The notes below the pieces were generated by a model that was not told the DNA's origin, searched no databases, and worked only from the letters and a program-made list of their open reading frames with translations. This document shows, piece by piece, positions 19,953-40,001 of a DNA stretch of 48,428 bases (its first letter is position 1; the number at the start of each line of letters is the position of its first letter). The DNA is from a virus (Duplodnaviria; Heunggongvirae; Uroviricota; Caudoviricetes). The position numbers and the translations under genes were made by a program. The stretch lies in the IMG/VR virus record IMGVR_UViG_3300045988_145381. One strand, given 5' to 3'.

Positions 19953-21809
19953 CTATATGGTTACGCCTTTACTTATAACTCTACGGCGTCTTCTACGTAT
20001 ACCTGACGAGTTCTGCACATACACATTACCTCGCATTTCCTGTTCGGCAAGCCAGTTAAAATTAGGGTTCAGAATTTCCATCGCGGCAGTTGCATAGTTA
20101 CGGCAATCAAGAGGCTCGTTACGCTCGTAGACTTTCACCCACTTTTCTTTTGTCTGCCCATTTTTATATTCAAATATTTTCTTCTCTGATAATAATCCTT
20201 TAAAGTATTCGGTATCATATCCTCTGTCAGAATCTAATGGGAAATGCATATAACCAGGACCAGGATCATGTAGTTTAATTCTTGCCATGATGGTCCCTTT
20301 ACCATCATCAACCCCCAAATTAAACAACATAGCACCCACACGGTTATTATTACTTGGCTTTCCTATAAATGGTAAACCTACCCCACCACGCCCCCTGATA
20401 GAGTATATTCGCCTTGATTCTCTCGGCTTAGTAAAGCGATATACCTCTGTCGTAAAATGCCCACCAGAGTCAATACAAACGGAAGAAATCTGTAATTTTC
20501 GACCGTCACGGAATGACCAGCTACGGAGTAAGTATTCATCAAGTTGTTTCCAGACAACATCTTGTGCGGGATCACCTGGGAATATTTTATATTCTATCCC
20601 CCATGACTCCTTACCTTTTCCCCAACCGACCAATTCACAAACTAAATACGTGTCCTGTACGTCAACACCAGCACTTAACAATAAAACATCATCTGGTAAA
20701 AACTCTTCAAACCTTATTCTGCGTTGCAACAAGTATTCAGGATCGATATCGTCTTTAGCATCCTCTTTCCATGGCTCACCCAGCTTAAGGTTAATAAACT
20801 CCATTAATCCATTTTTATCGCGGTTTCTGGTTGCTTCCGTAAATTCTTCAACCAGCTCTGACAATGCAACCCACGGGGAGTAAAGACTGTTAATATGAAA
20901 ACCAACAATACCTTTAACTCCAGTATGTTCAGCTATCCATACCCCCTTCGCCAACCAATCAACGTCTGGTTTACCAGATCCGCGCATAATCCCGCCGCAC
21001 TCACAGCACTCATATCTGGCCGTTTCCGGTAACGCCTCACCTGAATCGCTCTTATCCCATCTGACTTGCGACCATTTCATCACCTGCATGGTGCCACAAC
21101 ATGGGCAAGGAACATGGTAGTAACGCTGATCGGAGAGCTTAAACCACTTGTGGATTTTGCTCGTTTCCTCCAAAACAGGAGTAGAAACAAAAACTTTCTT
21201 ACGATTATGAAAGTTGGTAGTACGCTGAATACCTAGTTTTAGTGGGTCGCCCTCCTGCGTCACACCGTAACGATCAATCTCATCAGCTAACAGTATTCGA
21301 ATTGGCCTGGATGCAAGACCTGCTGGGGAATTAGCACCAACAAGTGCTATATATCCACCAGCGTAATGCTTCATACGTATAGTCGTGCTGGACTTTTTGG
21401 CTGCACCGCGCCCCTCTTTCCCTTCATGCAGCTTGTGTTTCAAACCAGGGGAATATTTGAACGTCGGATCAATACGCTCTTTTGAAAAAGCCTCAGCCGC
21501 CTCTACCGTTGGATAAATCATCAACTGAGGAGATGGCTCCTGATCTGCAAAGTAACCCATAACATTTAGCTGTAATTCGGATTTACCAATTTGCGAGCTA
21601 CATTGCATCACTACTGTTTCTGTATCAGCGTCACCAATAACATCCATTGGTTCACGCAAATATGGCACTCGGCTTGTACGCCACGGCCCTGGCTCTGGAG
21701 ACGTTCCCGGCGCTACATGACGATACTTATCAGCCCATTCGGAAACAGTTAGCCGTGATTTAGGGCGAAGCGCACGGAAAAAAGCGGTGCTCCATACTGT
21801 TTCGCCCAT
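19953..21809 (-). CDS. terminase large subunit (lambda gpA-like)
   Basis: 618-aa ORF following the small-subunit gene; lambda A-like size and order. Confidence 0.8.
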   Translation of the reverse strand: MGETVWSTAFFRALRPKSRLTVSEWADKYRHVAPGTSPEPGPWRTSRVPYLREPMDVIGDADTETVVMQCSSQIGKSELQLNVMGYFADQEPSPQLMIYPTVEAAEAFSKERIDPTFKYSPGLKHKLHEGKEGRGAAKKSSTTIRMKHYAGGYIALVGANSPAGLASRPIRILLADEIDRYGVTQEGDPLKLGIQRTTNFHNRKKVFVSTPVLEETSKIHKWFKLSDQRYYHVPCPCCGTMQVMKWSQVRWDKSDSGEALPETARYECCECGGIMRGSGKPDVDWLAKGVWIAEHTGVKGIVGFHINSLYSPWVALSELVEEFTEATRNRDKNGLMEFINLKLGEPWKEDAKDDIDPEYLLQRRIRFEEFLPDDVLLLSAGVDVQDTYLVCELVGWGKGKESWGIEYKIFPGDPAQDVVWKQLDEYLLRSWSFRDGRKLQISSVCIDSGGHFTTEVYRFTKPRESRRIYSIRGRGGVGLPFIGKPSNNNRVGAMLFNLGVDDGKGTIMARIKLHDPGPGYMHFPLDSDRGYDTEYFKGLLSEKKIFEYKNGQTKEKWVKVYERNEPLDCRNYATAAMEILNPNFNWLAEQEMRGNVYVQNSSGIRRRRRRVISKGVTI

Positions 21810-21814
21810 GAGGT

Positions 21815-22375
21815 TTATTCTTCCTGCTTAATAAATCGGGATTCCTGGAGCGCCTGAAGCGCAAAATTAATCTCGTCTTCAATAATGCGTTCGATCTCCC
21901 TGGCTGTTTTGCCTTCACAACGGGGAGCTGCTCTTGGAGCAATACTAAATAAGCGGCTACGCAATTCATTAGCTGCCAGAAATGCATCATCCCTGACCGC
22001 ATCTTTAGCGATGAGAGAGCCTTCCTTTTCTTCAAATTCAAGGCGTTTCAGCTTTGCCTGATAAATTTTTTCTGCGGTCTTAGCCTTGTTGAATTGCACC
22101 GCAACACCGGAAGTACCACCAGCTAATCCGGCATCATCAGCGGGTAACTCTGGTTGTTCCGAAGATATCCCATGCCCTCTTTTTCCATTTTCAGCAGATA
22201 CCTCACGACCAACCTGTCGGCTCGCTTCATAAGCCGCACTGGCTTTATCAAAATCCAGCTTGCCGCTTTTCAGCACTGGAATGCGACCGGAACGACAGAG
22301 CTTCGTAACCATTGCCGGAGAAATACCTTTCCGGCGAGCAAACTCTGACTTACTGACGATGGCCATTACTTGCAA
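21815..22375 (-). CDS. terminase small subunit (putative)
   Basis: 186-aa ORF with N-terminal HTH-like segment (...ARRKGISPAMVTKLCRSGRIP...) directly upstream of TerL. Confidence 0.5.
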   Translation of the reverse strand: MQVMAIVSKSEFARRKGISPAMVTKLCRSGRIPVLKSGKLDFDKASAAYEASRQVGREVSAENGKRGHGISSEQPELPADDAGLAGGTSGVAVQFNKAKTAEKIYQAKLKRLEFEEKEGSLIAKDAVRDDAFLAANELRSRLFSIAPRAAPRCEGKTAREIERIIEDEINFALQALQESRFIKQEE

Positions 22376-22956
22376 CCATTAGCAAGATACTGAACAAATC
22401 CCTCATGCGTTTCATGCGCGTCGTGGTACTGACGATAAACATCCAGCAACAATGCAATTTCCATATCCGTCGCGGGAATACGTTCTTTATCAATAGCCAG
22501 GTACTTAATTTGAACAACAGGGGAAGAATTATCGTCTTCTTCCTGCGGCTGTTCATCGCTTAACATTTCGTCAAGCTCTGCATCATTAAACCCAAGCAGA
22601 TCAATATCAAAATCATCATCCATTAACTCTTTGACTTCTTCGGCCAGAAGCTGCATATCCCAGCCAGCATTTAAGGCCAGCTTGTTATCTGCAATCCTGT
22701 AAGCCTTCTTCTGTTTTTCAGAAAGGTTACTCAACCGAATCGCCGGAACTTTATCCATTTCCAGAATTTCGGCTGCTGCAAGCCGACCATGCCCCGCAAT
22801 CAGTTCATTCTTTTCATCGATCAGCACAGGATTAGTGAAACCGAACTCACGGATACTGTTCACCAACTGTTCAACCTGCTCATCTGAATGAGTCCGTGAA
22901 TTTTTGGCGTATCTGAGCAGCTTACCGACTGGTAAATATTCGATTTTTAGAGCCAT
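22366..22956 (-). CDS. ParB-like nuclease-domain protein
   Basis: 196-aa ORF with ParB N-terminal domain pattern (...NPVLIDEKNELIAGHGRLAAA...); paralog of 25623..26246; overlaps the TerS start. Confidence 0.65.
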   Translation of the reverse strand: MALKIEYLPVGKLLRYAKNSRTHSDEQVEQLVNSIREFGFTNPVLIDEKNELIAGHGRLAAAEILEMDKVPAIRLSNLSEKQKKAYRIADNKLALNAGWDMQLLAEEVKELMDDDFDIDLLGFNDAELDEMLSDEQPQEEDDNSSPVVQIKYLAIDKERIPATDMEIALLLDVYRQYHDAHETHEGFVQYLANGCK

Positions 22957-23513
22957 TTTTTAACCGCCATAACACAACAGGTTAAAGAAAACTGTTTAAC
23001 TTATTGATACTAAAAGAGAAAAATGACGATCTTTTTACTCATAAAAAATCACACAAACCAGCATAATCATCTGATTTTATTAAGTTTTTATAAGTAAAAA
23101 GGATCTTGAGATGGTGTTTTGGTTAAAAGATTGGATGTATTTGCATGATTTATAACGATTTTTATCAGAACAACATCACATTGGTTAAAGATCTGCGCGT
23201 ATCTTGATGATCTAAAAGAAAATTTTCTACTTTCTTTTTACCAGCACAAATACAGCAAAAAATCACGTTTTCCCGATATTTTTCAATGAGATGAGTAAAT
23301 TTCTTTTACCGCAACTTTTAACCTAACTTTTTTCACGTTTAGCTAGCCGAACATCGGGGTTCGAATGACCCGCATCCAACGCTTTTGGTCAGAAGGACCC
23401 AATTCTGCCGGACGATGAAACGATGCTCGTGCTCCCCCACAGACAGCCAGCGAGCGACGCTACAGAACACAGTGAATACACTATGCATAACAACACCATC
23501 AACCACACGATGA

Positions 23514-24233
23514 TTAACGAGAGAAGGTCTTAGAAAGAATGTCATCAATAGCCTTTGTGACTTCATCAGCAAACGCATCCTCACCAGCACGCAGCGCCAC
23601 GCCATGCCAATCAAGACGCTGCGAATAGTTAGGTTGCTGGATAAACGTAAGGATCAACGTAGGACGCCGCCCAACGCGCTGCCAGACGCCTGGTTGAAGC
23701 GGGTTACTTGTACCAGGTCGAACAACAAAAAACTCCGTAGGCTTGCCCTGACGGCGATTTTGATGCGCATCTCGCTGAACTCTTAGGCCAGATAAGACCT
23801 GCTGTAATTGCCCCCGCGAAATATTCCCGTATTTGTCCAGCTTTGCGCCGGGACCAGGAGCAAGCTGCCAGCCGTTAGGCAAATATCCACCAGCCCTTAG
23901 CGCCCCTTCTGAGCGTTTGTACTGTCGTTGGCCACCTTCGATTTGCGGAGTCAACGTTACAGGGGCTGGCGTTCCTCCCCATTCACGAGCATACACAATG
24001 GCTGTAGGATCACTCTTCTTTGCGGCCAAAACGTAAGTAGAGTTCTGAATCCACGGCGTGGGCCTGTCAAATACCCGATTAATTTCATTCTTAATCGCAG
24101 CCTGAGAAGCCTTTGCCGTTCTGGTTGCCGCAAGCGCCATTGCGAACGGCAATTCGCGTTCTTCAAGGCGCTGGAGTTGTCGTTGAATATCCTGAGAAGA
24201 AAAATCCATCTTTATCTCAATTCTGTCAGCCAC
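23514..24233 (-). CDS. hypothetical protein
   Basis: 239-aa ORF downstream of the ParB-methyltransferase gene; no recognisable motif. Confidence 0.45.
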   Translation of the reverse strand: MADRIEIKMDFSSQDIQRQLQRLEERELPFAMALAATRTAKASQAAIKNEINRVFDRPTPWIQNSTYVLAAKKSDPTAIVYAREWGGTPAPVTLTPQIEGGQRQYKRSEGALRAGGYLPNGWQLAPGPGAKLDKYGNISRGQLQQVLSGLRVQRDAHQNRRQGKPTEFFVVRPGTSNPLQPGVWQRVGRRPTLILTFIQQPNYSQRLDWHGVALRAGEDAFADEVTKAIDDILSKTFSR

Positions 24234-24249
24234 CAGCGCCTCCTACACA

Positions 24250-25629
24250 CTACTTAATCAACGGCCGGAAAGCCGCCAGCACATCATCAGATCGTCCGAT
24301 TGTTGAACCACCAGGCAACGGCAACTCAAACTCAAAACGAACAGCTTTCTCCAGACTCGCCCAACTAAGGGAATCATCGTTAATGACGTGCAAATACCAG
24401 CTCTTACAGTTGAATATTGACCGCTTAATCCTGAAACCATGTACACGACACAACTGCTTCACTTCATCATCAGAGTGGAACTTCTGGTAAAACCAGTGCC
24501 CCTTCCGGTACAACGCGGTAAAACCGTTATGATCAATAAAATAAAGCCGGCTTTTGGAACTCGCCGCTTGTGTTTGCTTCAGGACTGTTTCCAGCTCTCC
24601 ACGGCTACGACCAGAAAAGAATATTGACCCACCAGCTTTACACAGGCCTTTCAGAACCGTCAGAACGGACCATTCAGCCTCGACACTGTCGACCGAGTTC
24701 AAAACGCTATCGCAAATCACGTAGTCGTAACGCCCTCGCGTTTTTAAGTCATCCACCAGCGTATCAATCATCCGGTTTGTTGCAGCCCTATCCAGAGTGT
24801 TTCCTGCGCCCTTACGGCGGAAAAGCTCGAGATCATGCAGGTTATACCCCTTTGCCCTGAGCATTCGCGCGTAGTCTCCCTGCCCCGAACCAAAATCAAT
24901 TCCTCTTGGCGTCTTGGCAATGATCGGGAGGATCAACGACTCATACAGGTTTGATTTCAGGCTGCCACCATTACGCAACCGCATAAGCTGCGCATACGTC
25001 TGGATGTATGTTGTTTTCTCCAGATGAGAATACTCAAATACACCATAAGTTTTATTCAGATAACTTTGGTATTTTTCCTTCTCAACATCAGGGATCACAA
25101 ACACCGTTAGCGGTGTGCGCGTCATCTTCGCTGCTAATGCATACTGAGCACAGTGAATAACCTCACCAGACTGAGTAGCAACACAACCACCCCACGGACC
25201 ATACTTGATAACCAGTTCCGCTATGTTCTTTCGAACATATGCCATTTTCGCGCGCATATTGCCTGAGATCTGGCTTGCCGATACCTGAACAAAACCATGC
25301 TTATCTTCCAGACCGGACACCCTGCAACGCTCATCTCCGCTATCAAAATCCGTTCCGTTATGCAGTTGGTTAAACCGTACTTCGTCGTATACCGTCGTTT
25401 CACAGGGCAACACATACACCGCAGCACGCGTTATTCCCAACTTACGTAGCGCCTTCGTCCTTTGGTGTCCCGCCACCAGCAAATCGCCGCGCACTATCAA
25501 TGGCTTCACAAGCCCCAGCTCCCTGACGCTTTCCGCCAGCCTCGCAAGATCATCCTCACCGATAAAACGCGGGTTATATTCCGCGCCGCGTAGGTGCGTT
25601 ATGTCGTAATTGAGGTGAAGCATCAGCAC
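24250..25629 (-). CDS. ParB-like N-terminal domain fused to class I SAM-dependent methyltransferase
   Basis: 459-aa ORF; N-terminus ParB-like (...LIVRGDLLVAGHQRTKALRKLG...); motif I IDFGSGQGDYARML and motif II-like YDYVICDSVLN. Confidence 0.65.
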   Translation of the reverse strand: MLMLHLNYDITHLRGAEYNPRFIGEDDLARLAESVRELGLVKPLIVRGDLLVAGHQRTKALRKLGITRAAVYVLPCETTVYDEVRFNQLHNGTDFDSGDERCRVSGLEDKHGFVQVSASQISGNMRAKMAYVRKNIAELVIKYGPWGGCVATQSGEVIHCAQYALAAKMTRTPLTVFVIPDVEKEKYQSYLNKTYGVFEYSHLEKTTYIQTYAQLMRLRNGGSLKSNLYESLILPIIAKTPRGIDFGSGQGDYARMLRAKGYNLHDLELFRRKGAGNTLDRAATNRMIDTLVDDLKTRGRYDYVICDSVLNSVDSVEAEWSVLTVLKGLCKAGGSIFFSGRSRGELETVLKQTQAASSKSRLYFIDHNGFTALYRKGHWFYQKFHSDDEVKQLCRVHGFRIKRSIFNCKSWYLHVINDDSLSWASLEKAVRFEFELPLPGGSTIGRSDDVLAAFRPLIK

Positions 25630-26246
25630 ACCTCCCCAGCCAGCAATGCGGATACAAATCCGATATAGCTGCCATTATCATCAACATAACGAGACACCGC
25701 GCAGTCAAAACGATCCGCTTCCTCATCCGTTGCCGGGATTTTATGACCTCCAAATGACAGGTACTGAACTTTTACGCCTGATTTGGCCTCATCCTTCTCA
25801 AATGGGATATCCATACCCTCTGTGTCATCGTAGACCGCCGCACTCAATAAGTTATCCAGTTCGCGCTGAGTAAAACCAATTGAGTCCAGAGCAAAATCAT
25901 CGGCCGCAAGATCTGCAAGCTCCGCGCTTAACAACTCTTCATCCCAACCAGCATTCAGCGGAATACGGTTGTCGGCCAGACGATATGCCTTCTTCTGATT
26001 CTCCGTTAGCCCAGCCAGAACAATGCAGGGAACATCATCCATCCCCAACTGAGTGGCCGCAGCAATTCGACCATGACCAGCAATTACAACGTTGTTCTCG
26101 TCTATCAGGATCGGATTAGTCCATCCGTACTCCTGTATGCTGGCAACAATCTGATCTACCTGCTCCACGGAGTGTGTGCGAGCGTTCTTTTCATAACCAA
26201 TCAACACAGAAAGTGGTAAAGAAACCACATTAAGATGTTTTGTCAT
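25623..26246 (-). CDS. ParB-like nuclease-domain protein
   Basis: 207-aa ORF, paralog of 22366..22956 (...NPILIDENNVVIAGHGRIAAA...QKKAYRLADN...); coupled to the methyltransferase gene. Confidence 0.65.
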   Translation of the reverse strand: MTKHLNVVSLPLSVLIGYEKNARTHSVEQVDQIVASIQEYGWTNPILIDENNVVIAGHGRIAAATQLGMDDVPCIVLAGLTENQKKAYRLADNRIPLNAGWDEELLSAELADLAADDFALDSIGFTQRELDNLLSAAVYDDTEGMDIPFEKDEAKSGVKVQYLSFGGHKIPATDEEADRFDCAVSRYVDDNGSYIGFVSALLAGEVC

Positions 26247-26480
26247 GCCGTTTATCCGCTAAAATCCCCTCGCTTGTGCAAGCAAGTGGGCCTCGGTTTG
26301 TATCCACGGCACCCTGTGGGTATGAATGACTGTCGTCAGGTCGCAACTGACGGCAGTCGCCCACCTTCCAGTAATAAAAAAGCCACCAGCATTAACTCCA
26401 CAGCAAGCTGGAGTTAATGAGACAGCTTTGGTTTGCGCATTATCGCAGCCCCTGATAAGCACAAGAGCTGCTGTAATGCG

Positions 26481-26891
26481 TTACGCAGGGATCAAACGGA
26501 GGCAGCCGTTATTTACCTCAATACGAGAGTATTCCGGCTTACCATCAACGATTCCGGTAATGACAAGTTCGCCATCAGACGAGCATTCTTCTTTGTCGTC
26601 TTCAAGTACCGCGCCTTCTGGCAAATCAACACAGGCAAAAACAGGGCAGCCAGGATAACGATCATCTTCCATCGCAATCAGCATCGACTCACCGAACCAC
26701 TCTGTGGTAGCACGGCCATCAGCCGCCTGATAGTGAATCAGATACTGGTTTTCGCCATTTGCATACTGAGCACGGGCTTGAACTTCTCCCCATTCGTCAC
26801 TGATACGCATTGTTACCAGTTGGGATAATTCAAACTTAAACGGAACAGACTCTGCACCAATGGCAATCGGTTTATCTTCTTTCTTTTCCAT
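26481..26891 (-). CDS. hypothetical acidic protein (start trimmed to the Met with an aggtga Shine-Dalgarno)
   Basis: ORF 26481..26960 with probable start MEKKEDKPIAIG...; an upstream hairpin terminator overlaps the longer ORF. Confidence 0.4.
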   Translation of the reverse strand: MEKKEDKPIAIGAESVPFKFELSQLVTMRISDEWGEVQARAQYANGENQYLIHYQAADGRATTEWFGESMLIAMEDDRYPGCPVFACVDLPEGAVLEDDKEECSSDGELVITGIVDGKPEYSRIEVNNGCLRLIPA

Positions 26892-26940
26892 AACATCACC
26901 TGAAAATAAAAAGCCCCGCGACACCGCGAGGCTGTAAGAG

Positions 26941-27093
26941 TTACTTTCGATAGAAATCAAGGCGCATTTGCTCCCGCTTAAGCCGAAAAGCTCTCTGCGC
27001 CACTAAGATGCGCCACAGGACACCAGCAATAACCACCAGCGAGATACAAAAACACACGGCCACAACCATCAGAAAAATGCCAACACCATTCAT
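26941..27093 (-). CDS. small hydrophobic membrane peptide (50 aa, MNGVGIFLMVVAVCFCISLVVIAGVLWRIL...)
   Basis: Read directly from the sequence (below the ORF-track size cut-off); ATGA overlap with the upstream 68-aa gene; hairpin terminator follows. Confidence 0.4.
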   Translation of the reverse strand: MNGVGIFLMVVAVCFCISLVVIAGVLWRILVAQRAFRLKREQMRLDFYRK

Positions 27094-27296
27094 GAAACTA
27101 TCCATTCTTCAATGAATATCTCCAGTAATGTCAAGAGATACGCCGTCCCCAGCGCGGTTCCTACCGATATAGCTAAGACAAACCTCAAAGATAACGAGGT
27201 GTCTTTCGCTTTTCTCCAGACGTAAGCGCCAGCCAGAAATACCAACAAATCTCTTATTGGAAGCGGAAACCAGAACAAATCACTCGGCAAGTCCAC
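27090..27296 (-). CDS. small membrane protein (68 aa, two predicted TM segments)
   Basis: Hydrophobic ORF coupled to both neighbours. Confidence 0.4.
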   Translation of the reverse strand: MDLPSDLFWFPLPIRDLLVFLAGAYVWRKAKDTSLSLRFVLAISVGTALGTAYLLTLLEIFIEEWIVS

Positions 27297-27298
27297 GG

Positions 27299-27766
27299 TT
27301 ATATCCTTCCATTCATTTTTATCGGATGACCAGATAGCCTTACGCAGTTGAGCTGTAAAGCTCCGGTATCAACTAAATAATCAACTAACATGATTAGAGA
27401 TTCATATTCAGCCAGATAGCTAACCTGACGCATTCGACCGCCGTTGTTCTCCAGAATGTCGGCCACCTTTGCAGCCAACTCGCTTAGACAGGAGAACTTA
27501 TTCCCATATATCGTTTTATACTCGCGCTTCTGGCATTCTTCTGGCATTCTTCTGGCTTGCGGCTGGTTATCGAGAGCTATCAGCGACCGATAACTATCAA
27601 GGAAGTCCACAATCTCATTCAGGCACTCTTTGGCTGCCTCATCGTGACTTTTTCCGTATGCTTCATGGAGGACTTTCATCCTCATCATTGCTCCGTCACA
27701 CATAATCGAAAGCGCGTAAAGCACATCACTAATCGCCATTTCTTTTTTGGTGCTTGTCGAAGGCAT
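27299..27766 (-). CDS. hypothetical protein (first gene of a terminator-flanked moron)
   Basis: 155-aa ORF with aggaga Shine-Dalgarno; terminator upstream; contains an 11-bp tandem repeat at 27531..27560. Confidence 0.5.
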   Translation of the reverse strand: MPSTSTKKEMAISDVLYALSIMCDGAMMRMKVLHEAYGKSHDEAAKECLNEIVDFLDSYRSLIALDNQPQARRMPEECQKREYKTIYGNKFSCLSELAAKVADILENNGGRMRQVSYLAEYESLIMLVDYLVDTGALQLNCVRLSGHPIKMNGRI

Positions 27767-27773
27767 CCCATGT

Positions 27774-27800
27774 TCTCCTTTGTCTGGATGTAAAAAAGCC
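27774..27800 (-). terminator. rho-independent terminator
   Basis: gcctcggcaattgccggggc hairpin followed by tttttt on the minus strand. Confidence 0.55.
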
Positions 27801-27840
27801 CCGGCAATTGCCGAGGCTCGTTGTTCGTTATCGTTACGGT

Positions 27841-28041
27841 TTAATGCTCGCGTCGTCCGGCGACAACTTCGGATTTGTATTTCAGGTCGCCCAGCAAGAA
27901 TTGCAGTTTAAGCATCTTTGCCGCCGTGTAGTTCCCTGATTCCACAACCTCTTTCATGAGGTCATAAACGGCCGCTACATCATCAGCCAGGAACTCTTTG
28001 CGTTGCTGCTCAGTCGCACGTTTGAAGGAAATACGCATCAC
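27841..28041 (-). CDS. hypothetical protein
   Basis: 66-aa ORF coupled to 28038..28307. Confidence 0.35.
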   Translation of the reverse strand: MMRISFKRATEQQRKEFLADDVAAVYDLMKEVVESGNYTAAKMLKLQFLLGDLKYKSEVVAGRREH

Positions 28042-28307
28042 TCATCATCTCCTGCCGCACATACAACCTCACAAAAAACATCAGCGGAATGTTTCTCCTT
28101 GAACGAATGACGCTCAAAACCGCACTCAATATCAGGCGCAAAAACATCCACCACATACGGTCTTTCAGAATGTTGGTTTTCCCAACGATAAACCGTAGTG
28201 ACGTTGAAATGTTTTAACGCTTCACGGAACTCAACGCTGCCCGTCAGGTTTTTTGAGGTCAGGTATTGCAGGAGGTTTTTTACTACTTCACGGTCTTGTA
28301 CTTTCAT
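28038..28307 (-). CDS. hypothetical protein
   Basis: 89-aa ORF directly downstream of copy 1 of the conserved promoter-leader element. Confidence 0.45.
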   Translation of the reverse strand: MKVQDREVVKNLLQYLTSKNLTGSVEFREALKHFNVTTVYRWENQHSERPYVVDVFAPDIECGFERHSFKEKHSADVFCEVVCAAGDDE

Positions 28308-28314
28308 CGGGTTA

Positions 28315-28425
28315 TCTCCGGTTTAACCAGGGCGGGTATCGCTCGGTTTCGGGTATAACCTTAGGAAATTTTTTCCCACCTGTAAAGCACTTTTTATATA
28401 AATCTATAATTATATAATTCTATGA
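28315..28425 (-). promoter_or_regulatory. conserved promoter-leader element, copy 1
   Basis: Near-identical to 34827..34940 and 44347..44457; gene-direction read gives TTTACA-17bp-TAAGGT, a -10-like TATACC, a conserved leader and ggaga Shine-Dalgarno; AT-rich palindrome upstream. Confidence 0.6.
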
Positions 28426-29007
28426 CACTTGCCAGAGAGCATCATGCAACTGGATACCTCCGTTGCACTGGTTGCCCCAGCCATGCCAGCCATCAGGTAA
28501 ATCACCGCGAGCAAATAGCTCAATACGAGGAACATCACCTAACAGTCTTACCAGCTTGTCACGAACCACATCAGGCTTCCGTGAATGTTCCAGACGAGGC
28601 GATGTAAACGACTGAATGATCCCCGCATCAAGACGTGTCGGTAGTTTGCCTTTCACTGCAAACAAGCAATCTTCACTGTTTGCACGAGTCATATGCCCCA
28701 TCCCCATCACCAGCTTATCTGGTTGTCGGCTACCACATTTGTTCCATGTGAAGCCCTTCATGGTCATAAGCCTGAATCCCCATGCTTTCACCACCAGCAA
28801 CGCTTCTTCTGGCTGAGTCGGAACCCACCACATGGCCAACAAACACGATTCAGGATTAGCAAGCTGCCAGACAGGAATACGAGCAATATCCTCAGCTTTC
28901 ATCGTTGGATACTTAAAACCAGCTCCACGATTCCCATCCTTACACTTATCTTTGTATTCCCAGGGGGGATCTGCATAAATCAGATTAAACAATGCAATTG
29001 CCTCCAT
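28420..29007 (-). CDS. MT-A70-family N6-adenine DNA methyltransferase
   Basis: 195-aa ORF with the DPPW catalytic motif (...IYADPPWEY...). Confidence 0.7.
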   Translation of the reverse strand: MEAIALFNLIYADPPWEYKDKCKDGNRGAGFKYPTMKAEDIARIPVWQLANPESCLLAMWWVPTQPEEALLVVKAWGFRLMTMKGFTWNKCGSRQPDKLVMGMGHMTRANSEDCLFAVKGKLPTRLDAGIIQSFTSPRLEHSRKPDVVRDKLVRLLGDVPRIELFARGDLPDGWHGWGNQCNGGIQLHDALWQVS

Positions 29008-29315
29008 GTTAGTTGTGCCTCCGGCGCTTATCTCCGGCAGTCATAACGCTGGCCAGCTCTACAGCAGACACAACGAAAAGGGCACTAACCAGACTGATTA
29101 ATGCCCTTGCCTGTTGTGTGCCGGATATCGCCCGACAACGCTGTTTTGGTAACACGGCTACAGTTCCGTGCCGCTCCAGCTTTTACCCCTTTGCGGATAA
29201 CAGGCCCTGCCTGTAACTTAGCCCCACGTTCGCCCGAAATGCGCACCAGGCACGCATAAAGATGAGCACGAAGGAAGTAACTCCACCGCGCTTATCTTTA
29301 TGTGTGAGAGTGAAT

Positions 29316-29391
29316 TGGTGGCCCCTACCGGATTTGAACCGATGACCGTGCGATTATGAGTCGCCTGCTCTAACCACTGAGCTAAGGGGCC
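29316..29391 (-). tRNA. tRNA, anticodon CAU (Ile2-like or Met)
   Basis: 76-nt cloverleaf GGCCCCTTAGCTCAGTGGTTAGAGCAGGCGACTCATAATCGC...GGTTCAAATCCGGTAGGGGCCACCA with encoded CCA; 5' half matches E. coli ileX-type tRNA as recalled from memory. Confidence 0.85.
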
Positions 29392-29560
29392 ATATTTGAT
29401 CTGTTTGTCTGGTGTGGCGCCGCGCACGAAAATCCCAGCCAATAAATTCAGGATTTTTGGGCGCGGCGGCATATCAGACAAACATGGTTGATGCGTGCGC
29501 CCATAAGAAAAGCGCATAGAATGTTGTAACTATATATTTATATAATTATAGAAATATATA

Positions 29561-29770
29561 TTACTTTCGGCAGTTGATTTCCCATGCCCTGTTATGAGCC
29601 AGAATATCTTTCTTTGTCTGGCGGTCCATAACATCGATGTCGTGATCAGTCAGGTAGATGGGCTTTACCCAATCACAGGCGGTATCAACCACCACCGGGA
29701 CGCTTCCACGACTCCCGCAGCTCGCGATCAACATCGTCATCAGCCATATGGTTAACACTCTGCTGTACAT
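29561..29770 (-). CDS. o-spanin (Rz1-like lipoprotein)
   Basis: 69-aa ORF with lipobox-like LIASC, out of frame inside the 3' part of the i-spanin ORF. Confidence 0.55.
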   Translation of the reverse strand: MYSRVLTIWLMTMLIASCGSRGSVPVVVDTACDWVKPIYLTDHDIDVMDRQTKKDILAHNRAWEINCRK

Positions 29771-29963
29771 TCCCCACCTCTTTTGTCACTTCTATACGCC
29801 GCTCCGCAGTGGCTTTTACGGCGGCTGCATTCTCATTAATGCGCTGCTTTTCAGCTTCATATTCGGCCTTTTCTCGCCCCTTCATACGACCAAAACCAAA
29901 TGCGCCGAATGCAACTAATATAATGGTGCCGATAAATGACAAAACGGCTTTCAAACCAGTCAT
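29685..29963 (-). CDS. i-spanin (Rz-like)
   Basis: 92-aa ORF with N-terminal TM segment and charged coiled region; immediately downstream of the endolysin. Confidence 0.55.
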   Translation of the reverse strand: MTGLKAVLSFIGTIILVAFGAFGFGRMKGREKAEYEAEKQRINENAAAVKATAERRIEVTKEVGNVQQSVNHMADDDVDRELRESWKRPGGG

Positions 29964-30502
29964 ACCACCACTCGCTCTTTCATCCAGCCATAGACAAACG
30001 ACTCATTTGCTTCGCGTTTCTCCGCCAGGTCCAGATAACGGTCGCCCTGCGTACAGTTAAGGGCCGTCAGCATTACCCGTTCGCCGTCTTTTCCCCGATT
30101 CCCAAGATAAGCACGTAATGCCGCAATGGTGCGCGGGCCGATTCGCCCATCCACATCCATATCTGGATACAACTTCCCGCCACGGTTGAAAACATTCAGC
30201 CAACGTTGAAGCATCTTCGTAGCCACAGTCGGCCCCATGTTGACGCCCGTATCGCACATCTCAGCCGCAATATCAGGGGAAAATTGCGCCACCTGGTCAA
30301 AACGAGGCCCATACCAATAATCACCTTCAAGAATCATCAGAGCCTGTTCTCGCGTCAGATCTCGCATATCGCCACGGTATCCGTGAGCACGGGCAGTATT
30401 CTGAGTGATGCCCCACATTGTTGGGCCTCCCTTGTCGTCAGGGTGATCAACATAACCGCCCTCTTTTCCAAGAATGCTGTTAAAAATCTCATCTTTGGTC
30501 AT
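29960..30502 (-). CDS. endolysin, GH108-type muramidase with C-terminal peptidoglycan-binding region
   Basis: 180-aa ORF; N-terminal ...GKEGGYVDHPDDKGGPTMWGIT... motif characteristic of GH108 lysozymes. Confidence 0.8.
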   Translation of the reverse strand: MTKDEIFNSILGKEGGYVDHPDDKGGPTMWGITQNTARAHGYRGDMRDLTREQALMILEGDYWYGPRFDQVAQFSPDIAAEMCDTGVNMGPTVATKMLQRWLNVFNRGGKLYPDMDVDGRIGPRTIAALRAYLGNRGKDGERVMLTALNCTQGDRYLDLAEKREANESFVYGWMKERVVV

Positions 30503-30785
30503 GATTAAATCCTAATGCGTCAACTATCCGCGCCAGATTGCCCCTGAAATACAGAACAACGATGCAGATAATCAGATTTCCAATAACCACCAGCCAGTGG
30601 GATTCTTGATAAAGACCGAACACATAACGGAAGGGAACATTGGCGTATACAATGACGTAGATATAAGCTAGAAAGGAAACAAATGGACGATGCCTGGAGT
30701 CTTTCCGTCGATAAAGCATCAGCGCCATTACTATTACTGTGCAAAGCACCGCATTAATCAGTGCTGACGGGTCACTGCTTACCAT
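30489..30785 (-). CDS. membrane protein, possible holin or antiholin partner
   Basis: About 3 TM segments; between the holin and the endolysin; start uncertain (ORF track 30489..30821). Confidence 0.4.
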   Translation of the reverse strand: MVSSDPSALINAVLCTVIVMALMLYRRKDSRHRPFVSFLAYIYVIVYANVPFRYVFGLYQESHWLVVIGNLIICIVVLYFRGNLARIVDALGFNHDQR

Positions 30786-31167
30786 TTGAACCCCCTCCAC
30801 GTAAGCGGGAAAGCATTCCAAAGATGCTACCGAGATCCTGGCTGTTTACGAACGTGAGGATTTTAATGGTCAATGCAGCCACAATAACCGCACCAAGCGC
30901 ATCCAGAGGACGATCGTTGTAGCTGGTCCATTTGGCAAGAAATGAGCCAACTAACGGCGCTCCAATCACTCCAACAATGAACGATGTAAAGAAATAGCCA
31001 ATCAGCTTGAGACGGCTAATATTCACCGCTGTAGCAACATAGAAAACAGCGCCAGCAAATGCCCCGAATACAACGCCGTAATCAATACCAGTTGCAATAC
31101 CAAAAACGCTGGCACCCATCAGGCCACCAGCAGCAACGGCCGTACCGGAAATTGGTTCTGCTGACAT
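30772..31167 (-). CDS. holin (putative)
   Basis: 131-aa multi-TM protein at the head of the lysis cassette; gaggat Shine-Dalgarno; terminator immediately upstream. Confidence 0.55.
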   Translation of the reverse strand: MSAEPISGTAVAAGGLMGASVFGIATGIDYGVVFGAFAGAVFYVATAVNISRLKLIGYFFTSFIVGVIGAPLVGSFLAKWTSYNDRPLDALGAVIVAALTIKILTFVNSQDLGSIFGMLSRLRGGGSNGKQ

Positions 31168-31176
31168 TGAAATCCT

Positions 31177-31212
31177 CGTTAAAAAAAAAGCCCCGCCGAA
31201 AAAGGCAGGGCT
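31177..31212 (-). terminator. terminator-like hairpin upstream of the lysis cassette
   Basis: Minus-strand GC hairpin followed by a run of 9 T. Confidence 0.5.
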
Positions 31213-31553
31213 TCATAAAGCAACAAATTACGCGGTAATCGCTTAACGCAGTTTTACTACGTTAAATGAAACACTACACCCAGTTACCACCTAAAACAAG
31301 GTTTCCCCATAAAAAAACCTTCATATCGTGGTTAATCGATCAATAAAAAAGCAATGTTCAACTTTTTACCAACCGAACATCCCGACCAGGACTTCCATAA
31401 TATTCGCCGATATGCCACTGCTTAAGTTGAGTAATCTTCTCCAACTTAACTCCCATAGAGTCCAGTTTCTGCCATGTTTTCGGTTGTATGTGCTTCATTA
31501 CCCGCTCTGAATATCTGAATACTGCTCGTAAGCGCATGGCTTCTCACTACAGC

Positions 31554-32060
31554 TTATATATGTTCACGACTGGACTTCCAGAATATCCACGCCAGATCAA
31601 CATTCGGGTCCTGGTAATTCATCCCTTCGTTGGCACGAAGCAATAATGTTTCATGGTTTTTATCACCCGCATGAAACCTGACAAGTGCTTCGAACTTTTC
31701 GCGCCCATCATCCGGCACTACCGGCTCTGGTTGGATAGTGACGTTGGCAAAGGCAGCACGCAAACCGGCCTTAATTTCCTCTACTTCATCAGCGCCTAGC
31801 GATGAATCTGACAATGCGTGATGGAATGCGTAAGCCATATCGTCGTTTACTGCAACCGGCTCTGCTTCCAGTGATGCCAGTGCAATTTCATAAGCACGGC
31901 GCTCAATATTGTCTCTAACGTCCAAGCTGCCTATGCGCTCTTTGATTTCTTTAATCATTTCTTTGTCGGTAAAAGTGGTCACATCACTCTCCTTTAGTGC
32001 GCAGATAACTGTGGTTTTTCCAGCGGTTTTGCGCCGCGCTGGGCTTTTTGCAAAAACCAC
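31554..32060 (-). CDS. hypothetical protein
   Basis: 168-aa ORF; start uncertain. Confidence 0.4.
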   Translation of the reverse strand: MVFAKSPARRKTAGKTTVICALKESDVTTFTDKEMIKEIKERIGSLDVRDNIERRAYEIALASLEAEPVAVNDDMAYAFHHALSDSSLGADEVEEIKAGLRAAFANVTIQPEPVVPDDGREKFEALVRFHAGDKNHETLLLRANEGMNYQDPNVDLAWIFWKSSREHI

Positions 32061-32164
32061 AATCCATCATCCCGTAATGTTTCATTAACCCCATCCGTCG
32101 GTTGCTGAGTCTCACCCACTGCCAGACGCCAGGAGCGTTTCTACGAACTAACAGAATCTTTGCT

Positions 32165-32452
32165 TTACGGTTTTTCATCGTTTGCCCCCTGCTTTTCTGC
32201 CCTTAACACCATGCGAGAACCATCATCCAGCTCCCAATTGATTTCACCGCCTTCTGCCATGACAAGATGCCAAACGAGTTGTGCGGCCTCGTTGGTTACA
32301 TCACGACCGCGATCATTGCCTACACGGCGTTTTGTTCCGTCACCTAAATCGCGCATTTTGGCCAACACGATGGTTTTTGATAGCGGTGAAAAACCAAGCT
32401 GTAGCCGTGCGGAATTACTCACTGGTTGCCCCCTGAATACGTTTAAACTCAA
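32165..32452 (-). CDS. hypothetical protein
   Basis: 95-aa ORF; true start probably internal (MRDLGDG...). Confidence 0.3.
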   Translation of the reverse strand: MSLNVFRGQPVSNSARLQLGFSPLSKTIVLAKMRDLGDGTKRRVGNDRGRDVTNEAAQLVWHLVMAEGGEINWELDDGSRMVLRAEKQGANDEKP

Positions 32453-33020
32453 TTACCCATACCCACGGGTTAGATAGCCAGTTCTCTTGCCCGTAAATAC
32501 CGCGCCAGATATCACCAAAGCCAACGCGATAAACCGCTTCCGGCGGTGTAATCTTGTACGTCGCCGGAGATGCGCCTTCCGCTTTAGCATCTGCCTCGCT
32601 CATGTCATGCAGCCGTTCCACACGCACGTCGGTAATTTCCAGCAAAATACGCGAAGCCCAGCGCGGCATGTGAATCGACGGGGTCCAGCCCTCAGCTGGC
32701 TTGCTACTATCTGAGTAATCAGCCTTGTAATCACACAGTTCAGAAGCCAGAGAGACACCATCTTTGATTTCCTGAATGACATCGTTATCCAGCCAAAAAG
32801 CGTTGAATGTTTCACGGACCCATATGCGATCACCAACGTTACCGAACGGGCATAAACCATGTTCCGGTGCATCCATAACGTGGGTATAGACACCATTGCG
32901 TTTCTTTGTCGGTTTACGGATAACCAGGCAGTTATCGGCCCTGACATTTTTTACAGGTCGGCGAGTCTGCGTTTTCCTTCCTTCGAGGATGGCTCTGACC
33001 ATCTCATCATTAAAAATCAT
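32415..33020 (-). CDS. ASCH/PUA-like domain protein (putative)
   Basis: ORF 32415..33107 trimmed to MIFNDEMVRAILEGRKTQTRR..., an ASCH-like N-terminal signature recalled from memory. Confidence 0.45.
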   Translation of the reverse strand: MIFNDEMVRAILEGRKTQTRRPVKNVRADNCLVIRKPTKKRNGVYTHVMDAPEHGLCPFGNVGDRIWVRETFNAFWLDNDVIQEIKDGVSLASELCDYKADYSDSSKPAEGWTPSIHMPRWASRILLEITDVRVERLHDMSEADAKAEGASPATYKITPPEAVYRVGFGDIWRGIYGQENWLSNPWVWVIEFKRIQGATSE

Positions 33021-33040
33021 GCCGCGCTCTTTCACCTTGC

Positions 33041-33406
33041 TCACTTCAACTCCTCCCGACGACGTTCCTGAAGCTCTAGCATTGCGGCTCGGAAATCCTG
33101 CCACCACTCCTCATCTGCAACGGGGGTGTTCCGCTCCAGCACCTTGTCCGCATCTGCGATCAGATTTGCCAGACTCTTGTCTGAAATCTTCGTTACCGGA
33201 GTCGTTGGTTGCTCAACCTGCCCGATAGGTTTTATCGTGCTCAAAAGGAGGCGACGGCTGGAAAGTGGCGACCCACAACGGCGCCCATCTTCCTTGCGAT
33301 ATGTTTCTTTCGGACCAACACACCAAGTTGTCGGCGTTTCGCGTAACTTCACTTTTTTCTCACCATCAATGGTGATGATTATTCCGGTATGGGTTTTGAT
33401 GCTCAT
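33041..33406 (-). CDS. hypothetical protein
   Basis: 121-aa ORF coupled to the upstream gene. Confidence 0.4.
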   Translation of the reverse strand: MSIKTHTGIIITIDGEKKVKLRETPTTWCVGPKETYRKEDGRRCGSPLSSRRLLLSTIKPIGQVEQPTTPVTKISDKSLANLIADADKVLERNTPVADEEWWQDFRAAMLELQERRREELK

Positions 33407-33684
33407 GCCACAGCCCCTCTCAACGGCTTAACTTTGGCTAATAAGGTGTTAAACAACATGGAGTTAGGGTTCATGCCAAATGGCAATTCCGGTTTAGCGG
33501 AGTAGTACAGGCAACCATTTATTTTCCTGGTTGTTATCTGTCCTTCGGCAACCATGCTTCTCAGTCTGCAACGCATAGAGTTCTGCGACACACCAATGTG
33601 CTCCGCGATTACGTCCACTTTTGAACATGGGTGATCGGTCAGGAAATTAATCACATCTTGGGGGTTAATAATTTTGCGTTTCAT
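33403..33684 (-). CDS. small winged-helix-like DNA-binding protein (putative)
   Basis: ORF 33403..33705 with probable start MKRKIINPQDV...; AT-rich palindrome motif immediately upstream. Confidence 0.4.
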   Translation of the reverse strand: MKRKIINPQDVINFLTDHPCSKVDVIAEHIGVSQNSMRCRLRSMVAEGQITTRKINGCLYYSAKPELPFGMNPNSMLFNTLLAKVKPLRGAVA

Positions 33685-33761
33685 TGTCGAGGCGTCCTTA
33701 TACATTTATATAAATATATAATTCTATATACAGCGGGAGACATCCCGCCGTATGCTTACTG

Positions 33762-34829
33762 TCAGGCTTTCAATAGCGATTCTTTCAGATATCGGGCATC
33801 AGCCAGGGCGTTTGGAGTAATCTTGCGAACCCATGCATTACGGGTTGGACTCCACTTAAAGGCGCGTGATTTAAGCAGCGAACGAATGTTTGCCTCTGGT
33901 TTGCCAGGGAAATAAAACAGGATGCGGTTATCCTCTGGATCTATCTCCATAGAAAAGCCGTCGTATTCTTCGCGCTGTGCTCCTGTTACAGACTTGACCG
34001 ATTCAAGCTCCTTAATACGGCTCTGTAGTCGTTTGATTTCGGCGTTATTGTTGCTCAGTGCGTATGAAGGGAATCCGATGCGCCCACAGAAATCTCCGGC
34101 CAGTAACTCTTTGGCTTCGCTTTCTGTAAACCTGAGATCGATTAATGCAGAAAGCTGCTGTAATTGGTCTTTTTTGTATTTGCGAATGGCCTTATTTGCG
34201 GCCTTCATTTTGACGTGTGACTTCATGCAGCCTTGCAGTTTACGAAGCAACTTAAATAGCGCATCAGGATCATCAGACGAAATTCCATTACGACCAACAC
34301 CTGCGGCTTTGCTCTCGTAGTGTGATGCTTTACTTTCGCATTCAACAAACGCTTTTCTGAATAACGCATCAGCTTTAGACAAACGGCGGCGATGGCCTTT
34401 CGCGCTATAATGGTCAACTAAAATCGGCTGGCCTAACGGGATCACATCCAACAGGTCATGCGCTCGCTTATGCGCTACCGCTCCTTCTTTTCTGGCTTTT
34501 TCTGCACGAGCAATATATCGGGCAAGACGCGCGTTCTGGCGTTCCTGATAGGTGTTTACGTAATCATCTCCGCGCTGCTGCTGTTCAAGCCATGCTTTGC
34601 GCAGATCTTCTGTTACGTCCACCAGCTCCGCAGGGATACAACCAGTTTGGGCTTCATAAGAGTAACCATCCTCATAGATGCGCCCATCGTCTTCAACAAA
34701 GAAAAAGGTTTCGTGCTCATCGCTTTTGACCATACGACCATTAACATGGCGTAATAGGTAGCCAGTATCAGTGCTTAACAGGCTGTTAGGGTTGTTGATC
34801 CAGTCAGAAATAATTACTTGTTTATTCAT
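33762..34829 (-). CDS. DUF3560-like protein
   Basis: 355-aa ORF; C-terminal ...FKWSPTRNAWVRK... resembles the DUF3560 signature recalled from memory; downstream of promoter-leader copy 2. Confidence 0.5.
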   Translation of the reverse strand: MNKQVIISDWINNPNSLLSTDTGYLLRHVNGRMVKSDEHETFFFVEDDGRIYEDGYSYEAQTGCIPAELVDVTEDLRKAWLEQQQRGDDYVNTYQERQNARLARYIARAEKARKEGAVAHKRAHDLLDVIPLGQPILVDHYSAKGHRRRLSKADALFRKAFVECESKASHYESKAAGVGRNGISSDDPDALFKLLRKLQGCMKSHVKMKAANKAIRKYKKDQLQQLSALIDLRFTESEAKELLAGDFCGRIGFPSYALSNNNAEIKRLQSRIKELESVKSVTGAQREEYDGFSMEIDPEDNRILFYFPGKPEANIRSLLKSRAFKWSPTRNAWVRKITPNALADARYLKESLLKA

Positions 34830-34940
34830 CAGATTTCTCCGGTTTAACCAGGGCGGGTATCGCTCGGTTTCGGGTATAACCTTAGGAAATTTTTTCCCAC
34901 CTGTAAAGCACTTTTTATATAAATTATATAATTATATATT
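34827..34940 (-). promoter_or_regulatory. conserved promoter-leader element, copy 2
   Basis: Near-identical to copies 1 and 3; lies between the Q-like gene and the DUF3560-like gene. Confidence 0.6.
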
Positions 34941-35000
34941 ATTAGATTTTCGATGTTCCCGATGTCTACACACCTATCAAAAAGCTCAAAATTGACACTT

Positions 35001-35378
35001 TTACTCTCTTCGCTTTTTCAAATAGTCGACAACATACGCCCTGGCTTTTGCCAACTTCCGGCGATACTGTCTGAGACTAAGAGAAAGGGCGTGGGCTTTA
35101 TCAATATGCGGTGCATTTATGTCGAGGCCCCGAATCTCCCACGCCCCGTATTCAATTCGGACAACCAGCGCCGCAGTCTCATCAACTACCGTGAGGGCCG
35201 TCACCGCTCCCTCGATACTGGTTTCCAGTGAGTCATTTGGTGCGCCGCCTCCTCCGGTAAACTGGCAACGCGTAACCATCATCATTTCTAACATCGACGC
35301 GAAACCGCTACGGGCGTTGCAGCCATTGCGCACCCACAGCGCCCATAGCTCAAACAAGCTATCCAGATCGCGTCTCAC
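35001..35378 (-). CDS. antitermination protein Q-like (putative)
   Basis: 125-aa ORF; ...LFELWALWVRNG... and C-terminal basic region resemble Q21/QuuD-type antiterminators recalled from memory; sits at the end of the cro-side operon. Confidence 0.45.
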   Translation of the reverse strand: MRRDLDSLFELWALWVRNGCNARSGFASMLEMMMVTRCQFTGGGGAPNDSLETSIEGAVTALTVVDETAALVVRIEYGAWEIRGLDINAPHIDKAHALSLSLRQYRRKLAKARAYVVDYLKKRRE

Positions 35379-35381
35379 TGT

Positions 35382-35714
35382 TCAGATCTCCCGTATCGTG
35401 ACGGGATAAAGCGCCTCTACCTGCTTTTTCTTCATGATGTAGACGTCTGTTCGCACACCTTTAGTGTCGACACAATCAATCGTCCCATCGTCATAAAACA
35501 CCATGAAATCAAGTTTATAAACGACACCACCAGGCAGATGAAAAGGCACCTGCATAAGAAACGTCACAACGCGGCCAGCTTTTCTCAGTAGCTTCAGTTC
35601 GCAGTAGTAATCAGCCTCTTTTTTGCTATCAAAAGCGATATCATCGACAACCGTTTTTTTATTGCCGTATTTGCTTTTCCTTGTCGCTGGTTTGCGAAAG
35701 CCGGTATATCTCAT
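35382..35714 (-). CDS. DUF1064-family phage protein
   Basis: 110-aa ORF MRYTGFRKP...KYGNKKTVVDDIAFDSKKEADYY... typical of the family. Confidence 0.55.
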   Translation of the reverse strand: MRYTGFRKPATRKSKYGNKKTVVDDIAFDSKKEADYYCELKLLRKAGRVVTFLMQVPFHLPGGVVYKLDFMVFYDDGTIDCVDTKGVRTDVYIMKKKQVEALYPVTIREI

Positions 35715-36115
35715 TTGGTATCCCCTGGTACTTCACCAAGACTAAGATCAAACCCAATTTCGTCTTTAACTGACTGCGGCAACAGCTCCCACGTCTGCGC
35801 ACACAAAAATTCATCGGTGCCATAACGCTCAACAAAGCGAGCACAATTACTCAGGGGAGGGTGACGAACGGCAATATGCGGAGGCACGCGCCCACCACCA
35901 GGCACAACACCGCGATGATGTGGTGCGCACAACCCAAAGCTATGGAAGTGGCAATTTTCATCAACGCTGCCGTAATCAGGATCGTGATGTAGCTCCGTCC
36001 ACAGCTCTGGATTCTCAATTTCACGGCCATCAATAATGCAAGCTATGCAACCCACGTGAGTGAGCACCGCTTGTATATAAAGTTTCTCTTTCTTCGTTGG
36101 TGTACGTCCGTTCAT
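35711..36115 (-). CDS. HNH-type nuclease, Ref-like (putative)
   Basis: 134-aa ORF with Cys/His-rich HNH-like motifs (...HVGCIACIIDG...ELHHDPD...CHFHSF...). Confidence 0.45.
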   Translation of the reverse strand: MNGRTPTKKEKLYIQAVLTHVGCIACIIDGREIENPELWTELHHDPDYGSVDENCHFHSFGLCAPHHRGVVPGGGRVPPHIAVRHPPLSNCARFVERYGTDEFLCAQTWELLPQSVKDEIGFDLSLGEVPGDTK

Positions 36116-39990: not shown

Positions 39991-40001
39991 GGGCCTAATC
40001 G

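Follow-up and report, generated by a model that had tools for sequence, protein, structure and literature searches.

A conserved predicted minus-strand terminator carrying a Chi site and a candidate plus-strand three-way-junction RNA in the spacer ahead of the ParB-like genes of an enterobacterial phage-plasmid

Gene context of the spacer

The window, that is the whole 48,428-nucleotide stretch of IMG/VR virus record IMGVR_UViG_3300045988_145381 analysed here, is on sequence grounds a phage-plasmid of ~48 kb. Its spacer region matched ~70 E. coli plasmids of 46-52 kb with 96-99% identity, including a plasmid of ATCC 25922, and also matched Escherichia phage vB_EcoM-613R2 and three Yersinia phages. 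All genes around the spacer are carried on the minus strand, in the following arrangement:

19953-21809, minus strand: large terminase of the lambda gpA type
22366-22956, minus strand: third ParB_N-domain protein
24250-25629, minus strand: ParB_N-methyltransferase fusion
25623-26246, minus strand: ParB_N gene with start codon at 26244-26246, its leader overlain by the candidate antisense RNA
26247-26480 (234 bp): spacer, bounded by the ParB start codon and by the stop codon (26481-26483) of a minus-strand open reading frame (ORF)

The upstream ORF that ends at 26481 is at most 159 aa long and has a shorter annotation in relatives, while a minor-tail-like protein and then the third ParB_N protein lie between the methyltransferase fusion and the terminase. 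One late operon here holds three separate ParB_N-domain proteins, one of them fused to a methyltransferase, and an MT-A70 methylase is encoded in addition at 28420-29007.

Folding of the whole spacer against shuffled sequences gave z-scores of -5.0 and -4.7 on the two strands, with 0/200 shuffles reaching these values. Both hairpins named in the first-pass annotation were recovered and both exceeded chance, but the count of two was too low, as the spacer holds at least five helices that belong to two elements on opposite strands. Its description as ORF-free also required qualification: mechanical ORFs of 44-67 aa span the spacer, but 1-nt loop indels between homologues disrupt every frame and the spacer is therefore regarded as non-coding. 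The ORFs at 26230-26364 (minus), 26235-26417 (plus) and 26326-26658 (plus) were rejected as small proteins for this reason, and according to ARAGORN the spacer contains neither a tRNA nor a tmRNA.

Elsewhere in the window, Rfam matches above gathering score were obtained for ryfA, isrK and C4 antisense RNA (39974-40270, minus; 40642-40714, plus; 40739-40827, plus), and these suggest a P1/P7-type (ImmI-like) immunity region beside a ryfA-like RNA. A tRNA with anticodon CAT at 29316-29391 (minus) was called tRNA-Met by ARAGORN and is given as tRNA-Ile by RefSeq in the near-identical plasmid pHN68-3.

Predicted minus-strand terminator hairpins

The half of the spacer nearer to the upstream ORF holds the following minus-strand features:

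26376-26381, minus strand: U6 tract, which reads AAAAAA on the plus strand, where it is an A-tract upstream of hairpin B
26382-26426, minus strand: hairpin B, an 11-bp stem with an outer 6-bp stem GCUGUC/GGUGGC, predicted intrinsic terminator stem
26383-26390, minus strand: Chi site GCTGGTGG, an exact match inside the 3' arm of hairpin B
26437-26479, minus strand: hairpin A, predicted in folds, starting 2 nt past the stop codon of the upstream ORF

The perfect 11-bp stem of hairpin B (cattaactcca at 26390-26400, tggagttaatg at 26409-26419, 8-nt loop) was formed in none of 2000 spacer shuffles, the longest stem being 10 bp, seen once. Read in gene sense the hairpin runs AAAGCUGUC-U-CAUUAACUCCA-loop-UGGAGUUAAUG-CU-GGUGGCUUU and then UUUAUU; on the minus strand its stem, 17 bp with interruptions, leads into U6. 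Both hallmarks of a Rho-independent terminator were found on that strand, a stable stem-loop containing G+C and a U-tract in which GGUGGC is followed by UUUUUUAUU; a simple terminator scan overlooked the hairpin because its stem is interrupted. The minus-strand fold has an energy of -17.9 kcal/mol in the window; in relatives, which carry U5 to U11 at the position of the U6 tract, the range is -12 to -27 kcal/mol. Hairpin B was stabler on the minus strand in all 24 distinct variants (mean difference 6 kcal/mol), the wobbles in its outer stem are of the kind that is G.U on this strand, and its stem sequence has been replaced several times across relatives with pairing kept. It lies 55-100 nt past a stop codon. 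These observations bear out the earlier suggestion that the 11-bp hairpin is a terminator, and the nearby T-run noted with it proved to be the U6 tract directly 3' of the hairpin on the minus strand. We therefore assign hairpin B, with high confidence for a sequence-based prediction, as a minus-strand terminator. Read on the plus strand its stem is weaker and its U-tract interrupted, and it probably terminates in both directions.

In hairpin A the outer stem is GCAUUA/UAAUGC, while the inner stem varies and covaries between the E. coli and Salmonella copies. The minus-strand fold of hairpin A was the stabler one in 20/25 variants. Judged by these comparisons, hairpins A and B together are a conserved predicted intrinsic terminator that closes the moron block on the minus strand.

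Four additional strong terminator-like hairpins with U-runs were found on the minus strand (31214-31187, 29108-29078, 27819-27796 and 26933-26912), all in the moron block between the lysis genes and the spacer, such that each moron seems to be separately insulated by its own hairpin. It follows that late transcripts must be antiterminated to extend into the packaging genes. Farther away, at 37372-37405, a perfect palindromic hairpin of 13-14 bp with T-runs on both strands sits in the divergent region between a long minus-strand operon and plus-strand genes, and could be a bidirectional terminator or an operator.

The arrangement resembles the bidirectional Rho-independent terminators that flank phage morons, in that hairpin B and U6 follow a stop codon, the hairpin stands between an A-tract and a U-rich tract, and the neighbouring morons have similar terminators beside them. 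It differs in that an invariant Chi site forms the 3' arm of the stem, which is always paired with hairpin A, and in that the two hairpins travel as a module with the candidate RNA gene and ParB.

Chi site and one-orientation Chi array

The 3' arm of hairpin B, GCUGGUGG, is the Chi sequence; it is the sole part of the hairpin that never varies and was kept in nearly all variants. The window contains 14 Chi sites in comparison to 1.1 expected by chance, and all of them are on the minus strand, the sense strand of the late genes. They span 21355-37220 and are densest just upstream of the terminase genes. In lambda, the late-gene sense strand is the active Chi orientation. The array looks like a protection against RecBCD. 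Lobocka and co-workers are said to have described in 2004 an enrichment of Chi sites with an orientation bias in the P1 genome. The likeness to phage P1 lies in the many one-orientation Chi sites on a phage-plasmid, which presumably protect DNA ends from RecBCD, and the difference in the placement of 14 one-strand sites within 16 kb beside terminase genes, one of them in a terminator stem.

A conserved structured element on the plus strand

The remaining part of the spacer contains a second element, which was found to fold on the opposite strand and comprises the following features:

26260-26265, plus strand: candidate sigma-70 -10 box TAAAAT
26272-26283, plus strand: hairpin D, 5'-terminal stem-loop GCUU GUGC AAGC
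26286-26291, plus strand: 5' arm of P1, GUGGGC, which pairs with 26359-26364 and closes the three-way junction
26296-26327, plus strand: P2 hairpin of 14 bp with five G.U pairs and a CACC loop
26328-26358, plus strand: P3 hairpin with a 7-nt loop, the 12-bp imperfect palindrome of the first-pass annotation
26359-26369, plus strand: 3' arm of P1, GCCCAC, and unpaired tail CUUCC
26427-26435, plus strand: U-rich tract UUUGGUUUG after hairpin B, candidate RNA 3' end at which termination would occur

The structure was examined in 43 distinct variants, those left once chance matches had been removed. Across these, 95.7% of pair cells were paired (33-53% in slid-partner controls) and 12 pairs showed double, compensatory changes; the observed values were matched in 0/500 shuffles. 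RNAalifold returned the same four helices unguided, with a consensus energy of -46.1 kcal/mol, and predicted P2 independently. Hairpin D was 100% paired and has two covarying pairs (U-A to C-G, and a U.G wobble that exists on the plus strand only). The arms of the palindrome, gactgtcgtcag at 26328-26339 and ctgacggcagtc at 26347-26358, stand 7 nt apart and form 11 Watson-Crick pairs and one T.G. As P3 they were 96% paired, with changes on both sides in 7/12 pairs, and the loop between them varies freely. At 26355 (plus strand) the window has an A, found otherwise only in metagenome contig L060, in place of the G of all other plasmid copies, and a U.G wobble of P3 thereby becomes U-A.

The 5' arm of P1 was identical in 43/43 variants, an invariance partly imposed by the search patterns, as most homologues were retrieved by patterns that fix parts of P1 and P2 and segments called invariant are so partly by construction. 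The tail reads CCUUCC in all variants but L139/L166 and L167, where it reads CCCUCC. The unpaired CUUCC and CUYG segments and one arm of P2 were more strictly conserved than base pairing requires. A covariance model built from 18 sequences (R1) found a single copy in the window, at 26266-26369 (plus) with 109.7 bits. Rfam 15 gave no match to the spacer at gathering thresholds, matches with E up to 10 were chance-level eukaryotic snoRNA and miRNA, and no description of the plus-strand three-way-junction RNA was found in the literature.

The assignment to the plus strand follows from several comparisons of the two strands. Cells in which a G.U pair is possible on one strand only numbered 265 for the plus and 33 for the minus strand, counts that are inflated by shared ancestry since the 43 variants represent ~4-6 independent lineages and the cells are non-independent. 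P2 was 92% paired on the plus strand in comparison to 65% on the minus strand, with 187 plus-only and 23 minus G.U cells; for P3 the wobble cells were 75 and 10, although counted at the level of pairs its non-Watson-Crick pairs favour plus over minus by only ~4 to 2. The core folded at -50.0 kcal/mol on the plus strand (z = -5.1), where 35% of the ensemble is in the minimum-energy structure, and at -36.6 kcal/mol on the minus strand (z = -2.0), and the RNAalifold consensus of the minus strand was -29.6 kcal/mol. A put-type antitermination RNA like that of HK022, which would need two sense-strand stem-loops located past the promoter of the operon, was rejected, as the conserved structure forms on the antisense strand.

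It had been proposed that the palindrome, like the 11-bp hairpin, might be a terminator, an attenuator or a protein-binding site, and for the palindrome this did not survive comparison with its homologues. Its arms change together with complementarity kept, and the intermediates are mostly G.U pairs of the plus strand. It is one arm of a three-way junction in which the second arm, P2, can form on the plus strand alone, and this strand also carries a conserved -10 box upstream. Overall, these results indicate that the spacer very probably contains a conserved structured element of the plus strand, and the comparative support for both its structure and its strand is strong, making it a candidate new phage RNA family.

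Distribution of the element and linkage to ParB_N genes

The central ~105 nt, the core, was recovered in several settings through BLAST and pattern scans. It is carried by Salmonella plasmids with 79-91% identity, by Superficieibacter and Enterobacter genomes, by ~55 IMG/VR contigs and 26 metagenome contigs, and by a lambdoid prophage of E. coli STEC384, where it immediately precedes a different ParB gene, with terS and terL next in order. The carriers of the variants include phage-plasmids of E. coli, Salmonella and Klebsiella as well as unrelated lambdoid-type prophages. For one large prophage group, searches of the phage and plasmid collections gave no match.

In each of the 33 variants whose neighbouring ORF is complete, a divergent ParB_N gene lies beside the RNA, which is antisense to the leader of that gene. 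The neighbouring ParB_N proteins are 48-64% identical over ~135 aa and differ in their C-termini and lengths (169 to 476 aa), and the RNA core is 71-91% identical across variants with such proteins. The gene upstream of the module varies and may be a moron, a lysis gene or a divergent ORF. No copy of the RNA was found with the distant ParB_N homologues of environmental viral contigs (38-56% identity). A cos or pac site was rejected as an explanation of the core, as it stands beside a lambda gpA-type terminase here and beside different terminases in STEC384 and L061.

Candidate promoter and ends of the RNA

Every intact variant has, at exactly 20 nt before P1, a TAnnAT hexamer (TAAAAT, TACTAT, TATAAT, TAGAAT or TATTAT), in which positions 3-4 alone vary and which is missing solely from the truncated copy L054. 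That copy (L054:6313-6412, Enterobacter mori) has neither hairpin D nor the -10 box nor the ParB gene, directly abuts a terminase-small-subunit-like ORF, and is probably a deletion remnant. No convincing -35 element was found for the plus-strand promoter, TTGTCA (26240-26245) being just 14 bp away, and a promoter consensus scan did not report the plus-strand candidate; with no evident -35 the promoter is probably weak or activator-dependent. A search for a minus-strand sigma-70 promoter inside the core found none. Transcription is predicted to start at G26272, 7 nt past the -10 box, which is the nucleotide that opens hairpin D in all groups.

On the plus strand the core is always followed by an A-rich tract, a strong hairpin and a U-rich tract. 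The downstream hairpin is hairpin B in most variants, and in STEC384 it is an unrelated hairpin followed by UUUAUUUG. The U-rich tract was conserved as TTTGNTT(T)G in 24/24 variants that carry hairpin B, despite their differing B stems. On this basis the predicted RNA is probably ~165 nt long and would end at hairpin B read in plus sense (~26435). Some prophage variants have a conserved insertion of ~115 nt (TTTAGAATTTTCTGCTGACC...AGAACAAAAT) between the core and the Chi-bearing terminator, which was observed in L074 (next to L074:910-1016) and about 10 other loci. A plus-strand ORF lies downstream of the RNA in L023, L103 and L054, and transcription in that direction is therefore required there.

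Proposed function and alternative explanations

The reading that we favour, with a probability a little above even, is that the spacer is a conserved composite insulator module made up of a terminator, a Chi site and a cis-antisense small RNA. In this model, hairpins A and B with U6 would end the transcripts of the moron block ahead of the operon of ParB, ParB-methyltransferase and terminase, and the 3' arm of hairpin B would double as a Chi site. A small plus-strand gene, comprising a weak sigma-70 promoter, a start at G26272, hairpin D, P1/P2/P3, CUUCC and an A-rich stretch, would be expressed in the plasmid-prophage state, and its RNA would pair with full complementarity to the 5' leader of late transcripts that read through into ParB. 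This pairing, together with convergent transcription, may limit leakage from the ParB-like, methylase and packaging genes until massive antiterminated late transcription overrides the RNA.

The RNA (26272-26369) falls inside the ParB-operon leader of any read-through transcript. It begins 26 nt upstream of the ParB AUG and leaves the ribosome-binding site uncovered, and simple translational blocking is therefore unavailable as a mechanism. A silencing role is proposed by analogy with phage antisense RNAs and STnc6030, and we hold this part of the model only tentatively, as possible yet short of an even chance. In addition, the conserved three-way junction and unpaired segments are unexplained by plain antisense pairing and suggest a protein partner or a target in trans.

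One alternative is that the plus-strand RNA is real but acts in trans as a 'moron' RNA, binds a protein, or stabilises plus-strand morons as their 5' leader, and that it overlaps the ParB leader only incidentally. In its favour are the strict conservation of CUUCC, CUYG and one P2 arm beyond the needs of pairing, the uncovered ParB ribosome-binding site, and the plus-strand ORFs after the RNA in L023, L103 and L054. Past P1 comes an A-rich sequence that contains ARN-like repeats and is followed by a hairpin and a U-rich tail, an architecture that we take to resemble Hfq class II small RNAs. However, the longest complementarity to the RNA elsewhere in the window was 11 nt, a chance-level length with none of at least 12 nt, and sites like GGAAGGTGGGC occurred at a chance rate, such that a trans target within the window was rejected; the constant ParB_N linkage argues further for a local role. 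This explanation was judged unlikely.

A different possibility, which resembles the attenuator idea of the first-pass annotation, is that only the minus strand matters and that the core is the 5' leader of ParB mRNA, acting as an attenuator or translational switch that sequesters the Shine-Dalgarno sequence and start codon. The best duplex with the ParB initiation region fell in the same leader segment in 38/41 variants (26292-26313, opposite the P2 5' arm and junction, with the ParB start region 26238-26260 on the minus strand), through group-specific matches GUGCCGU:ACGGCAU, GCCGUG:CAUGGC, GGUCAU:AUGACC, CCGA:UCGG and CCAA:UUGG. This pairing is present in the minimum-energy minus-strand fold of the window, an alternative-register 6-bp helix with G.U pairs exists there, and A/T-rich hexamers like a -10 box lie directly upstream of GGAAGG on the minus strand. 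Against this, the duplex energies reached z-scores of only -0.6 to -2.5 relative to a shuffled initiation region, and RNAalifold did not predict the helix between leader and start codon in its minus-strand consensus of higher energy. Moreover, P2 has five C.A mismatches on that strand, where mismatches are almost all of the type that is G.U on the opposite strand, and the TAnnAT box is left unexplained. A local hairpin GGYCAU...AUGRCC around the group 2 ParB start was also considered and rejected, since all four base combinations occur and covariation was unclear by eye. We regard a minus-strand leader as quite improbable.

A further reading is that the three-way-junction RNA belongs to a new class of phage non-coding RNAs and, instead of being a simple antisense silencer, has the adjacent ParB/Srx-domain protein as its partner. 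It could then serve a ParB-like nuclease or methylase module, located where the packaging operon begins, as an RNA antidote, as a decoy, or as a factor for specificity or assembly. We see little likelihood for this reading at present.

Formation of the plus-strand structure in single-stranded DNA, as a priming (ssi-type) signal or a recombination substrate near Chi, would account equally well for the strand asymmetry, since DNA hairpins tolerate G.T wobbles, and the element does adjoin a conserved Chi site within a one-orientation array. It is nevertheless very improbable given the promoter-like -10 box at a fixed distance on the same strand, the association of the element with ParB_N genes and not with replication modules or a terminase type, and the expectation that RecBCD, if it enters at the terminase side, would have digested this stretch by the time it meets Chi. 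Least credible of all is a dimeric-protein site, either parS-like for the adjacent ParB-like protein or for a late-gene activator, for although an inverted repeat does lie directly upstream of the ParB_N gene, parS sites and operators have conserved half-sites, usually in several copies, whereas here a single-copy palindrome embedded in a larger junction with P1 and P2 has 7/12 pairs doubly changed, its arms co-changing through wobble intermediates around a free loop as expected of base pairing and not of half-site recognition.

Comparison with known RNAs

In Salmonella prophage BTP1, the antisense RNA STnc6030 is directed against a late operon and is expressed in lysogeny; it is ~786 nt long, lies inside structural genes and mediates superinfection exclusion, and a conserved fold was unreported for it (PMC7067206). 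The RNA predicted here would likewise be a prophage-encoded non-coding RNA opposite a late operon, but it is ~100-165 nt long, intergenic and strongly structured, and its function is a proposed one. A likeness was also seen to lambda OOP and aQ, P22 sar and P1/P7 c4, which are small RNAs that have their own promoter and are complementary to the leader of a phage mRNA or to the end of a gene. Rfam gave the candidate RNA no match to these in sequence or structure, and they act in immunity or early regions, whereas the candidate RNA heads a packaging operon and has a three-way junction.

The pRNA of phi29 is a phage non-coding RNA organised around a three-way junction and associated with DNA packaging. 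The present RNA shares the build on a three-way junction, but has no sequence or Rfam similarity to pRNA, differs in host, phage type and terminase system, and has no feature that would suggest a part in the packaging motor.

Biological implications

If expressed, the RNA would represent a well-conserved family of structured RNAs, so far uncatalogued, in temperate phages and phage-plasmids of enterobacteria, and would add an RNA layer to the silence of late genes in lysogeny at the boundary between accessory and packaging genes. It also connects the ParB-like genes, which stand ahead of many terminases and are poorly understood, with a non-coding RNA in a way that can be tested, and one of the carrier plasmids belongs to the reference strain E. 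coli ATCC 25922. The Chi site embedded in the terminator and the one-orientation Chi array bear on the RecBCD resistance of these elements.
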